Below, in pieces: positions 30,001 to 34,422 of a stretch of 34,422 nucleotides of DNA. Position numbers: made by a program. The stretch is from a virus (Duplodnaviria; Heunggongvirae; Uroviricota; Caudoviricetes). The stretch is from positions 1 to 34,422 of the IMG/VR virus record IMGVR_UViG_2695420685_000022; one strand, written 5' to 3'. Numbering within the stretch: the stretch's first letter is position 1; every line of letters starts with the position of its first letter.

Positions 30001-33000
30001 GCCAGGTCGCTGGTTCAAATCCAGCAAGAGCCACCAACCGCCACTAGCTCATCAGGAAAGAACGTCACCCTGTGCGAGATTCGGAGTCCCCGGTGGCGGT
30101 CCATTATCGGTATTCTGCGTTGTTAGCTCAGCCGGACAGAGCAATTGCCTTCTAAGCAATCGGTCACTGGTTCGAATCCAGTACAACGCACCACACTTAT
30201 TTTCCAGGCTCGCTTTGGCGGGCCTTTTTTGTATCTGCGCCACGCCCGGCGCATATCAACCACAGAGCCTTTCGGGGGTGAGCTTACGGAGTGGTCAGTG
30301 TGACTTTCTCTGTGGGCAGATCGCTCCCGGGCGTTGGCTCACCCACCCAAAGGAACGTCACGATGTTTGGTATTTTTGGTAAAAAAGCCCGCAGAGCGGC
30401 AACGGAAATTAAAAAGTTTGAGAAACGCGATCTGGCACAGGCGGTGATTAACGCTGCATACCTGGTGGCCTATGCAGATGGTGAATGCGAGGCATCCGAG
30501 AAAGCGAAGATCGAACAGGTCTTACGTAATCAGCCTGCGTTGTCTGCGTTTACCTCGGAAATTAATGCGATTAGCGCAACNNNNNNNNNNNGTTGTTACA
30601 GACGCCTTCCGCAGTGAAGGCTTTTTTATTTGTGGTAAATGGGCGGCTGGTGGGTGTTAGGGGCACTCACCAGCCATCTGCTCATGCGTTGTGGTCACAA
30701 GCAAACCTCAGGCCCATCTGCTTTGCGCAAAAGCGGTATGAGCCTATCAGAGAAGTGCTTATTGATCTATGGCTAATACTGTAAAAATATCCAGTTGTGA
30801 GTTAATCAACGCCGACTGCCTGGAATTTATCCGGTCGTTACCCGAAAATTCTGTTGACCTGATAGTCACGGACCCGCCGTACTTTAAAGTGAAGCCTGAG
30901 GGCTGGGATAACCAGTGGAAGGGCGACGATGATTACCTGAAGTGGCTGGACCAGTGTCTGGCGCAGTTCTGGCGGGTGCTGAAACCTGCCGGAAGTCTTT
31001 ACCTGTTCTGTGGTCATCGCCTGGCATCTGATATCGAAATCATGATGCGTGAACGCTTCAATGTGCTGAACCATATTATCTGGGCGAAGCCGTCCGGACG
31101 CTGGAACGGGTGCGACAAGGAAAGCCTGCGGGCGTATTTTCCGGCCACAGAACGCATTCTGTTCGCGGAACATTATCAGGGGCCGTATCGTCCGAAAGAT
31201 GATGGCGATGAGGCGAAGGGCAGGGCACTGAAACAGCATGTGATGGCCCCGCTGATTTCTTACTTTCGTGATGCGCGTGCTGCTCTTGGGATAACGGCAA
31301 AACAGATTGCAGATGCCACAGGAAAGAAAAACATGGTGTCGCACTGGTTCAGTGCCAGTCAGTGGCAGCTGCCGAACGAAAGCGATTATCTGAAATTACA
31401 GGCCCTGTTTGCCCGGGTGGCAGAAGAGAAGCATCAGCGCGGTGAACTGGAATGGCCACACCACCAGCTGGTCAGCACATACAGTGAACTTAACCGGCAA
31501 TATGCCAGCCTGCTGGAGGAGTACAAATCTTTGCGGCGTTATTTTTCTGTATCGGCTGCTGTTCCGTATACGGATGTCTGGATGTATAAGCCTGTACAGT
31601 ATTATCCGGGCAAACACCCCTGTGAAAAACCGGCAGATATGTTGCGTCAGATAATAGAGGCCAGCAGTCGTCCGGGTGATTTGGTTGCCGACTTTTTTAT
31701 GGGGTCAGGTTCCACGATAAAAGCCGCGCTTTCGCTTGGTCGTCGGGCAATAGGCGTTGAGCTTGAGGCTGAACGGTTTGAGCAGACGGTGAGCGAGATA
31801 AGAGAAATTCTGACGTGTAAAGCTGTTGACTGATTAATCAATGCTTATTTTTTCATAAGTCTTGTTGCAATATATAAGTATGGGGTGTAAAGTTGTTCTC
31901 GAAAATAATCATGTTTTCTCACGAATCAGAGGGGGGATAATGATTGAGGTTCGATGGACAAGGACAGCCCTGAAGCAGTTACTTCGTGTGGATACGCGGT
32001 ATCGGCAGGCGATAAAGGATAAGGTCGGTGCGCTAAAGGATTTTCCTCTGGTAGCCATGGATTTTAAAAAGCTATCAGGGAGTGACAATCGATTCCGTTT
32101 GAGGGTCGGCGTGTACAGGGTTATTTTTGATGTTGAGGATGGTGATCCTGTTGTCCTGGATATTAAGGAAATTAAGCGCAGAAGCACAACCACATACTAA
32201 GGGAGGCTGGCGGGAGACCGCCAGTTTGCTGAACGACATTCAATCGCGAAAGGCAATGATATGAAAAACAGTGTCCAGTTTATTACTGATAATGCCGGTG
32301 TTAGAACCGGGGTCATTATGTCAGTTGCTGAATATGAACGGCTGTTAAGTCTGGCAGATCCTGATGATGATTTTGAAAGCATCCAGTATGAAGCCGGAGA
32401 GAATGACAATGAAACAATACCTCATGAAGTAGTATCCATCATGATTGATGATGATGTGTCATTGTTGGCAGCATGGCGGATTTACAGGCGAATGACTCAA
32501 CAGGAAGTGGCGGAGCGCCTGGGGGTTAAACAGTCAGCCGTATCTCAGTTTGAGAGAGCAGGAGCTCCGCGAAAATCAACACTGGAAAAACTGGCTGAGA
32601 TTTACAACTGCCGACCAAATCAGTTGGCTGATTAATCCTGAGTTTGGTTTTCGTAGCGATTGCATTTTTCTTATCTGCTTGCCGTTGTAGGTAGCGTGTA
32701 TTTGCATGTTGTTTTGTAGTTAACCTTATGGTTGGCTGAATTTTGTTCATCAATAAAAAATATCCCTCTCTGATCTTTAAGGTTCGCTTTGGCGGACCTT
32801 TTTTTTATTTCCGCGCCACGCCCGGCGTACATCAAAAACCACAGAGCCTTTCAGGGGTGAGCTTACGGGATGGTCAGTGTGACTTTCTCTGTGGGCTGGT
32901 CACCCCCGGGCGCAGGCTCACCCACTAAAAGGAAAAGTCACGATGTTTGGTATTTTCAAAAAGAAAACCCGCAGAGCAGCAACTGAAATTAAAAAGTTTG

Positions 33001-34422
33001 AGAAACGCGATCTGGCACAGGCGGTTATTAATGCTGCCTACCTGGTGGCCTATGCAGATGGTGAATGTGAGACTTCAGAGAAAGCGAAGATCGAACAGGT
33101 ATTACGTAACCAGCCAGCATTGTCCGCATTTACGTCAGAAATTAATGCCATCAGTGCCACGATCACAGGTCAGCTTGACACCAATTTTAAAATTGGTCGT
33201 CGTGCAGCGTTGCGTGAAATTGAAGATGTGAAACACGATACGCGTGAAGCGGAAGATGTGCTGGATGTGGCGGTGGCCATTGCTGAAGCAGATGGTGAAA
33301 TTGAGCCGGAAGAGCGTAAGGTTCTGGAAGAGATTGCTGGTGTTCTTGGCCTGCGACTGGAGAACCACCTGTGACGGTAAAACTGCGTCTGGCCGCTGTG
33401 GCACTCCTGCTGTTTCTGGTGGTGATGGTGGATTTCACCAGCAGGATCATGTCGGTGCTGGCGGATGGAGTGCTGGTCTGCGGCATTGTGGTATTGCTGT
33501 GGCCGGTGATAAAAAGAAACAGCCTGCATAATGCTTGATTTTTTTGTTTGCTGTTTATTAAAAACACTTCTGCATGGTGAATCCCCCTGTGCGGAGGGGC
33601 GATCAGCAACCAGGTATATGGGATAATCGCGGATTCAGGTGCTGATACTGAATTCACCGGGAGGCACCCGGCACCATGCTTTGCCACAAAAGTGTTGTTT
33701 CTGTTTTTCTCAAACTATCATCATTATCCCTTTATTTCCGGCTGCGCATGGCGTGGCCTTTTTTTTACGACCAGCCACTGGCAGATGGCCATCCTGTAAT
33801 TTGATTCCGGTTCCGGCTTTTTAACTCTGTTCCTGTACACGGGAGAAATTCGATGTCGATTAAACATTATGATGTTGTCAGGGCGGCGTCGCCGTCAGAC
33901 CTTGCGGAAAAGCTGACACATAAACTGAAAGAGGGCTGGCAGCCGTTTGGTAGTCCGGTGGCCATAACCCCTTATACCCTGATGCAGGCGATTGCAGCAG
34001 AAGGTGATGTGGTGGTCAGTGGTGCAACTGAGCCGGAGTGGTACTACGTCATCGTACTGGCCGGGCAGTCCAATGCCATGGCTTACGGTGAAGGGCTTCC
34101 GCTGCCGGATTCATACGATGCTCCGGATCCGCGCATTAAACAGCTGGCGCGCCGCAGTACAGTGACGCCGGGTGGGGCTGCCTGCAGATATAACGATATT
34201 ATTCCGGCCGACCACTGCCTGCATGATGTGCAGGATATGAGTACGCTGAATCATCCGAAGGCAGACCTGAGCAAAGGGCAGTATGGCTGTGTCGGCCAGG
34301 GCTTACATATTGCCAAAAAACTGCTTCCGTATATCCCGAATAACGCGGGGATCCTGCTGGTACCATGCTGTCGTGGTGGTTCGGCATTCACCCAGGGCGC
34401 GGAGGGGACATTCAGTGCGGAC

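Follow-up and report, generated by a model that had tools for sequence, protein, structure and literature searches.

DjlA is a membrane-anchored co-chaperone whose TerB-like domain is tethered to the inner membrane through a transmembrane segment. The TerB protein of the terZABCDE system has been reported to have a membrane partner, TerC, in an account that cites Turkovicova 2016 (PMC11003894). The gene names tciA, tciB, and tciC come from phage P1, whose record marks them ‘by homology’, and the three genes were non-essential in a CRISPR interference (CRISPRi) screen (PMC10695390). A tciA-tciB pair was examined here in 34,422 nucleotides (nt) of IMG/VR record IMGVR_UViG_2695420685_000022, which represents a Caudoviricetes virus; this whole stretch is called the window. 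The locus proved to be an ordinary and already annotated pair of genes, the accessory module tciA-tciB of a lambdoid prophage, and the sole new point is a structured leader RNA in front of tciA, which provides a modest new lead. Coordinates are collected in Table 1, and handles beginning with L stand for other phage sequences.

TciA, a soluble protein with a single domain, was matched by Pfam TerB (PF05099) with 60.9 bits against a cut-off of 24.4 (1.8e-16, residues 26-138) and, over its full length, by PHROG 632 (1.7e-69). A profile made from five TciA sequences found the solved Klebsiella TerB, 2JXU_A, with an E value of 5.5e-12 (query 14-137, chain 20-144). The TerB similarity that had been proposed in a sequence-only reading of the window was thus borne out by both kinds of search. 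Both acidic ADG...E motifs (ADGxxxxxE) are intact, as YADGECETSEK (37-47) and EADGEIEPEER (115-125), and the alignment of five sequences shows no variation at D39, E46, D117, E123, or E124. The N-terminus, MFGIFKKK, is conserved and is invariant among the aligned phage TciA proteins. The same is true of Cys42, which directly follows the first ADG motif (ADGxC) and is missing from 2JXU. In addition, residues 87-138 are weakly matched by the DjlA model (29.2 bits, cut-off 162). RefSeq labels TciA a ‘tellurite resistance TerB family protein’, and GenBank labels it a ‘TciA/TerB-like protein’ (99-100% identity).

TciB was matched by Pfam DUF3927 (PF13064) with 60.3 bits against a cut-off of 25 (1.7e-16) and by PHROG 1470 (‘TciB-like’) with 2.7e-29 over positions 1-54 of 54. 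A total of 52 distinct TciB proteins were collected from 75 loci. These are 49-55 amino acids (aa) long, except for one truncated copy of 43 aa. They have in common a basic N-terminus followed by a hydrophobic stretch. An invariant DFT(S/G) separates this stretch from a second one that contains DG.LV, and (W/L/R)P and a basic tail complete the pattern. The hydropathy profile has two peaks that flank the DFT(S/G). The DUF3927 homologues in the database number 518, and the 120 that were listed are 51-90 aa long. Variability in tciB peaks at third codon positions, and the median ratio of nonsynonymous to synonymous substitution rates (dN/dS) is 0.28 for 1156 pairs. Therefore, tciB is a real gene under purifying selection, as the sequence-only reading had supposed of this small open reading frame (ORF). 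That reading had noted that the ORF is absent from the ORF track; elsewhere it is annotated, and RefSeq and GenBank carry it as a DUF3927 family protein or as TciB (99-100% identity). The matches of both proteins lie far above the curated thresholds, and their identity as TerB-domain and DUF3927 proteins leaves very little room for doubt.

The two genes appear to be a unit. The GTG start codon of tciB and the TGA stop codon of tciA share the letters GTGA, just as the earlier reading had described for the hydrophobic 55-codon ORF, and GGAG lies 8 nt 5' of the GTG. The overlap is kept as GTGA, TAATG, or TGATG in 20 of 21 TerB loci from different Enterobacterales genomes and also in phages P1 and Fostie. 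Pollock, a virulent N4-like phage, has tciA and tciB abutting, and its pair lies amid early or middle genes. The conservation of this junction is good, if indirect, support for translational coupling and for a fixed stoichiometry. TciA and TciB are co-inherited and, judging from these junctions, almost certainly co-translated across many phage types. Outside of P1-like loci, no conserved third ORF corresponding to tciC was found 3' of tciB. Matches to this stretch were present in 1276 of 5426 complete Escherichia coli genomes, at a median of three places per matching genome. Few cargo modules are as common in the lambdoid prophages of E. coli as the tci pair, and it needs no new annotation.

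The leader is what is new at this locus. Approximately 130 nt 5' of tciA are 76-93% identical in 17 loci, and the leader is conserved even where TciA is only 41-45% identical to the protein of the window. In the RNAalifold prediction, a hairpin of 5 bp (P0) is accompanied by a long hairpin, at whose base CCUUU is paired with the Shine-Dalgarno sequence AAAGG, and above this base are GGGUGAGCC:GGCUCACCC and a variable upper stem. The long hairpin is the single-sequence minimum-energy fold for most variants, at -52 to -57 kcal/mol. The strand just 5' of CCUUU can also pair with the loop at the tip of the long hairpin, and this alternative helix is called P1 (CCACAGAG:CUCUGUGG in the window). Because of the positions of its arms, helix P1 and the long hairpin are mutually exclusive. 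Across 24 distinct sequences, the arms of helix P1 come in 12 different pairs, and the helix is preserved. In the same set, the long-hairpin model leaves 91.1% of cells paired vs. 33-49% with slid partners, and both-side changes occur in 22 of 30 pairs vs. 8.8 in shuffles.

There is also a local hairpin in the leader, GGUCA:UGACU, whose 3' arm can alternatively pair with AGUCAC just 5' of the AUG. Three segments co-vary in several lineages. Two of these are the 5' and 3' arms of the local hairpin, and the third lies between the Shine-Dalgarno sequence and the AUG. In this order, they occur as GGUCA/UGACU/AGUCA, AAGCA/UGCUU/AAGCA, GACGG/UCGUC/GACGA, AACC/GGUU/AACC, and ACCG/CGGU/ACCG. Such linked changes are what a sequester/anti-sequester arrangement predicts. 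The G-U pairs that are frequent in the leader helices fit RNA of the + strand only. From its pairing, the leader looks like an RNA switch that hides the ribosome-binding site of tciA, a reading to which slightly better than even chances are given.

Several known classes of element were searched for in the leader. The cmscan program with Rfam 15 found nothing inside 32811-32942 at E<=1. A permissive scan (E<=10) gave only chance-level eukaryotic or viral families in the leader (E 2.9-4.9, far below the gathering scores), and the remaining matches of that scan were terminator-like 3' ends at 32770-32813. A full-text literature search with five fragments of the leader sequence returned only unrelated papers. 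A small coding gene was also considered and was rejected. One frame is open in both copies of the leader in the window, and it is broken elsewhere by 1-nt indels and stop codons.

A covariance model was built from 20 leaders and was used to look for further members. No match to the leader was found in lambda, P1, Pollock, or the phage 434 region. Divergent members were found elsewhere in phage contigs, with scores of 48-60 bits and E values of 1e-8 to 1e-11. One type of divergent leader lies 5' of a P22_AR_N antirepressor gene, between the endolysin and Rz genes, and is found in a Stx2a phage as well. Others lie 5' of a KilAC antirepressor gene, an HNH/AP2 nuclease gene, and three ORFs of no known identity. 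Closer variants of the leader precede a secreted binding-protein-like gene. The same leader family thus precedes unrelated genes, and this weakened the candidate of a TerB-specific riboswitch and argues against a ligand that is tied to TerB function. The leader could represent an undescribed family of cis-acting RNA switches in lambdoid late regions, Stx2 phages included. Such a family would gate the translation of its cargo (tciA, binding-protein-like, antirepressor, and HNH nuclease genes) by toggling between an early helix and a stable hairpin that buries the ribosome-binding site. The chances of this broader proposal are considered even. If it is true, tciA-tciB is one of several cargoes whose expression is limited to a defined moment of the phage cycle. 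A switch in this position would explain the silencing or the timing of genes that are inserted in the late operon.

The alternative cargo deserves description in its own right. In L146:1956-2953, L038, and L149, the tciA slot and leader hold a gene for a 281-aa secreted NMT1_3 binding-protein-like protein. It is followed by a 50-aa hydrophobic ORF of two segments (end ..WPFKSKS) and then by a Phage_holin_8 holin. The 50-aa ORF had no Pfam match, and it is similar to TciB in size and tail. When the genes that accompany tciB in phage 434 and those that accompany the alternative cargo were searched against Pfam, the only domains matched were the NMT1_3 binding-protein-like domain and a holin. In phage 434, tciB is followed by another annotated small membrane protein, and its upstream partner has no Pfam domain.

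It could also be that the leader has no function as RNA and is conserved only because it links exchangeable phage modules in recombination. A linker would account for the 83-93% identity of leaders that precede tciA genes with diverged proteins (41-45% identity with that of the window), and for the presence of the leader 5' of unrelated cargo genes, a pattern that is expected at module boundaries. However, a linker needs no complementary changes on both sides of a helix, and the 22 of 30 pairs and the 12 arm variants of helix P1 all keep their pairing. The three segments change jointly in divergent lineages, and the G-U pairs point to selection on one RNA strand. A mere linker is therefore held to be unlikely.

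The best overall explanation of these data is a tciA-tciB module of a lambdoid prophage with a proposed gating leader and a proposed use in lytic growth, and it is probably correct. TciB would be inserted in the inner membrane as a helical hairpin whose two basic ends face the cytoplasm. There it would recruit TciA, or keep it in fixed stoichiometry, at the membrane surface. By analogy with the TerC-TerB partnership and with DjlA, TciB could be a membrane tether for TciA, a tentative proposal whose chances are put somewhat below even. The TerB domain would act at the membrane through its two acidic ADG...E motifs. The pair would work in lytic growth and not as a trait of the lysogen, possibly on some envelope or ion-related process. 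Whether the TerB domain acts at the membrane through these motifs and the pair has a role in the lytic phase is a proposal that is evenly balanced. The leader would gate translation of tciA. In the stable fold, the Shine-Dalgarno sequence would be buried by the upstream CCUUU in the long hairpin. Helix P1 could form first during transcription, and it would then block the long hairpin and leave the ribosome site free. The leader may stay open only while this first-made helix persists, or if some factor stabilizes it.

A number of points weigh against parts of this explanation. The most favorable pair counts come from an alignment that had been fitted to the model structure. The independent leader lineages number approximately 10 and are related, and the pair statistics ignore their phylogeny. 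The leader is missing from 8 of the 21 genome loci and from P1 and Pollock, and therefore it is not required for the pair. For TciB, the AlphaFold model is a single continuous helix with a predicted local distance difference test score (pLDDT) of 90 and no hairpin turn, which does not agree with the proposed topology. Among the 120 DUF3927 homologues listed, there is no TerB-DUF3927 fusion, and thus no evidence from fusions for a physical interaction. Phage 434 (L004:1612-2599) has tciB without a TerB gene, after an unrelated 247-aa polytopic membrane protein, and therefore TciB can work without TciA. In addition, no experimental work on the function of TciA or TciB was found in the literature searched.

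The setting of the genes bears on when they are expressed. The window pair lies 3' of a Q-type antiterminator, between the methylase and tRNA/toxin-antitoxin cargo on one side and the nanS-like esterase and lysis genes on the other. In a Stx2a phage, the order is methylase, ileZ-argN-argO, stx2A, stx2B, nanS-like esterase gene, and holin. The earlier remark that the pair sits in the slot that stx would occupy is correct, and by this gene order its position equals that of stx2AB. A promoter of its own was considered for the pair and was set aside when a sigma-70 scan with a crude consensus found no promoter-like site in 32600-33900 or 29900-30580. A terminator precedes both tci copies. A T run was present 5' of the leader in 40 of 44 IMG/VR leader instances, and the terminator sequences vary between lineages. 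The pair is thus found in the C1-repressed ban operon of P1, in the virulent phage Pollock, and here without a promoter behind a terminator, and expression in lytic growth is the common denominator.

Further genes of this region differ between prophages. Between the methylase and the tciA leader, the window contains a toxin-first pair (31937-32635) of a ParE/RelE-family toxin (87 aa) and an HTH_3 protein (124 aa). In another type of prophage, two tRNA genes are found in place of this pair. The tRNA gene with a CAT anticodon (29961-30036 in the window; L005:2716-2791) was called Met by ARAGORN and is tRNA-Ile in RefSeq. The tRNA-Ile(CAT) gene of P1 directly adjoins tciABC, so the tRNA-tci neighborhood recurs in unrelated phages.

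The sequence-only reading had leaned toward phage resistance, and a more general form of this idea treats tciA-tciB as a moron for lysogenic conversion or defence. In that case, lysogens would express the two genes and be protected by them, as by the plasmid ter operon, from superinfecting phage, pore-forming colicins, or tellurite or oxidative stress. This seems improbable. The idea draws on membership in the TerB family, and yet the resistance labels are by homology only. No neighboring terZ, terA, terC, terD, or terE was found adjacent to the pair, whose neighbors are the methylase, toxin-antitoxin genes or tRNAs, DUF3927, nanS-like esterase, and holin. The shared slot with the stx moron and the multiple copies in pathogenic E. 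coli are also in its favor. Against it are the lack of a promoter-like site, the terminator 5' of the genes, and a Shine-Dalgarno sequence that is sequestered in the stable fold. With the PADLOC-DB 2.0 defence models, TciA gave only a partial match to PDC-S48 (14.8 bits over 35 residues) and TciB gave nothing. A defence system was rejected as a candidate for want of a usable PADLOC match. The pair is also present in a virulent N4-like phage that has no lysogens. These lytic contexts and the PADLOC result therefore argue against a role in defence, and the leaning toward phage resistance was not upheld. The pair lies in the slot that carries Shiga toxin in Stx phages, and it is a reasonable, although not an urgent, target.

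Another possibility is that the roles are reversed. TciB would then be the effector, a small membrane-active peptide that tunes, for example, holin timing, membrane potential, or DNA injection, and TciA would regulate or neutralize it. Of the two partners, TciB is better conserved, keeps an invariant pattern of DFT, DG, LV, and WP..K, and occurs without TerB in phage 434. An extra single-pass peptide lies downstream in P1 and in one other locus. The pair is directly 5' of the holin gene in many loci, but this adjacency may reflect only the usual insertion hot spot 3' of Q, and the pairs of P1 and Pollock are far from the lysis genes. No similarity of TciB to holin families was found in Pfam. 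An effector role for TciB is accordingly doubtful, and the tethering of TciA by TciB is preferred to it.

The sequence-only reading had reported that a terminator, a leader, and a TerB gene occur twice in the window, the first time truncated. Two sets are indeed present, and the terminator, leader, and start of the ORF are 93% identical over 390 nt. The covariance model found exactly two leaders in the window, and the second match, at 143.6 bits, is the 30235-30362 copy. The truncation and the duplication did not stand up. N runs are found in the window at 16282 (one base), 28674-28684, and 30581-30591. The first copy of tciA ends at codon 72 because the N run begins there, at 30581, and this is not a biological truncation. 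After both 11-N gaps the same letters resume (GTTGTTACAGACGCC...), 177 nt 5' of the start codon of the DNA methylase. The segment 5' of the first 11-N run terminates within a methylase copy. Thus, three methylase starts are found in series, at 28243-28673 (cut), 28862-29920, and 30769-31833. From this geometry, the window consists of three contigs that were broken at one repeat and set in series, and therefore it is not a contiguous genome.

The complete genome of strain FORC_042 shows how the corresponding sequences are arranged in one bacterium. It contains the sequence of the first copy with 100% identity over 651 nt, and there the sequence runs on into a TerB gene of the full 143 aa, which has a DUF3927 gene of its own. 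The order in that prophage is Q, methylase, tRNA-Ile, tRNA-Arg, TerB, DUF3927, esterase, and holin. The homologue of the second copy (99.9%) belongs to another prophage, approximately 550 kb away and on the opposite strand, in which the genes are ordered Q, methylase, RelE-like toxin, helix-turn-helix protein, TerB, DUF3927, esterase, and holin. Several tci copies per genome are real, and the tandem arrangement and the truncation are not. It is highly probable that the duplication and truncation within the window are an assembly artefact of the N-gap joins. A true tandem duplication of a methylase-cargo-tciA block within one prophage, for which three blocks in series with the same orientation and a divergence of the copies (88-93%, not identical) might be cited, was rejected as very improbable, since each junction is an 11-N run, the post-gap segments share their start, the pre-gap segments end inside a gene, and the complete genome with the 100% and 99.9% matches has its copies in separate prophages approximately 550 kb apart. 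The N-gap joins here produce seeming duplications and truncations without a biological basis, and any repeat or truncation that spans them is suspect.

Downstream of the pair, a match to STnc100 (Rfam RF02076) starts 5 nt 3' of the tciB stop codon, with 104.7 bits against a gathering score of 47 and over model positions 1-206. A 2026 preprint relates STnc100 to PasD, a small RNA (sRNA) of enteropathogenic E. coli (EPEC) (bioRxiv 10.64898/2026.05.13.724894). According to the same preprint, PasD2 and PasA flank a sialic-acid esterase gene in one prophage of E2348/69, and TerB is among the genes conserved near PasA and PasC (bioRxiv 10.64898/2026.05.13.724894). The layout suggests that an STnc100-like sRNA may derive from the 3' end of the tciAB transcript. 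The leader itself was considered as a Pas sRNA, and this was excluded as far as the described Pas positions allow.

Table 1. Positions of the tci module and related features (window positions unless an L handle is given).
Feature	Position	Strand	Basis or remark
Intrinsic-terminator-like hairpin and T run	32779..32808	+	9-pair stem 32779-32800, then TTTTTTTTAT; 5' of the leader
tciA leader, conserved and structured	32811..32942	+	covariance-model match, 145.5 bits
tciA, 143-aa TerB-domain protein, cytoplasmic	32943..33374	+	Pfam, PHROG 632, PDB 2JXU
tciB, 55-aa DUF3927 membrane protein	33371..33538	+	Pfam DUF3927, PHROG 1470
STnc100-family (PasD-related) sRNA element	33543..33715	+	Rfam RF02076
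Terminator-like hairpin and T run	33740-33758	+	3' of the STnc100 element
Second instance of terminator, leader, and tciA start	30206..30580	+	terminator 30206-30225, leader 30235-30362, first 72 codons of tciA from ATG 30363
11-N run joining two contigs from different lambdoid prophages	30581..30591	.	identical join at 28674-28684
Q-like antiterminator	27106-27669		upstream of the tci pair
Divergent leader members	L001:10537-10675; L151:1399-1537; L067:13784-13925; L063:11216-11347; L146:6962-7092; L018:4981-5099; L122:2979-3109

The locus can be compared with five known systems. The stx2AB cargo occupies the same slot between Q and the lysis genes (methylase, tRNAs, cargo, nanS-like esterase, and holin), but its proteins are unrelated, and a leader of the tciA type was not found 5' of stx2A (L150). 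Leaders that sequester the Shine-Dalgarno sequence, such as translational riboswitches and RNA thermometers, resemble the tciA leader in having anti-Shine-Dalgarno:Shine-Dalgarno pairing in the stable fold and an exclusive upstream helix. Unlike these, the tciA leader has no Rfam family and serves unrelated genes, and its hairpin is far too stable for a simple thermometer.

Klebsiella TerB (terZABCDE; 2JXU) has the same domain over its whole length and both acidic ADG...E motifs, and it too has a reported membrane partner in TerC. In contrast, the tci locus has no other adjacent ter gene, and the partner is a 55-aa peptide that is unrelated to TerC. The phage TciA clade also has an invariant Cys after the first ADG motif, which 2JXU does not have. 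The score of TciA with the DjlA model is far below the cut-off, TciA has no J domain, and its anchor would be a separate polypeptide. The likeness to DjlA is a weak TerB-like match and a membrane-held domain, which is the arrangement that is proposed for TciA with TciB.

Phage P1 is the closest of these systems. It differs in having a third peptide of 35 aa, TciC, that is not present at the window locus, and in having its genes in the C1-repressed early ban operon, whereas those of the window are in a Q-dependent late region. The structured leader is missing from P1. The two loci are alike in having a TerB-domain protein (42% identity), a DUF3927 protein (48%), and an overlapping stop and start codon, and a tRNA-Ile(CAU) gene adjoins the tci module.

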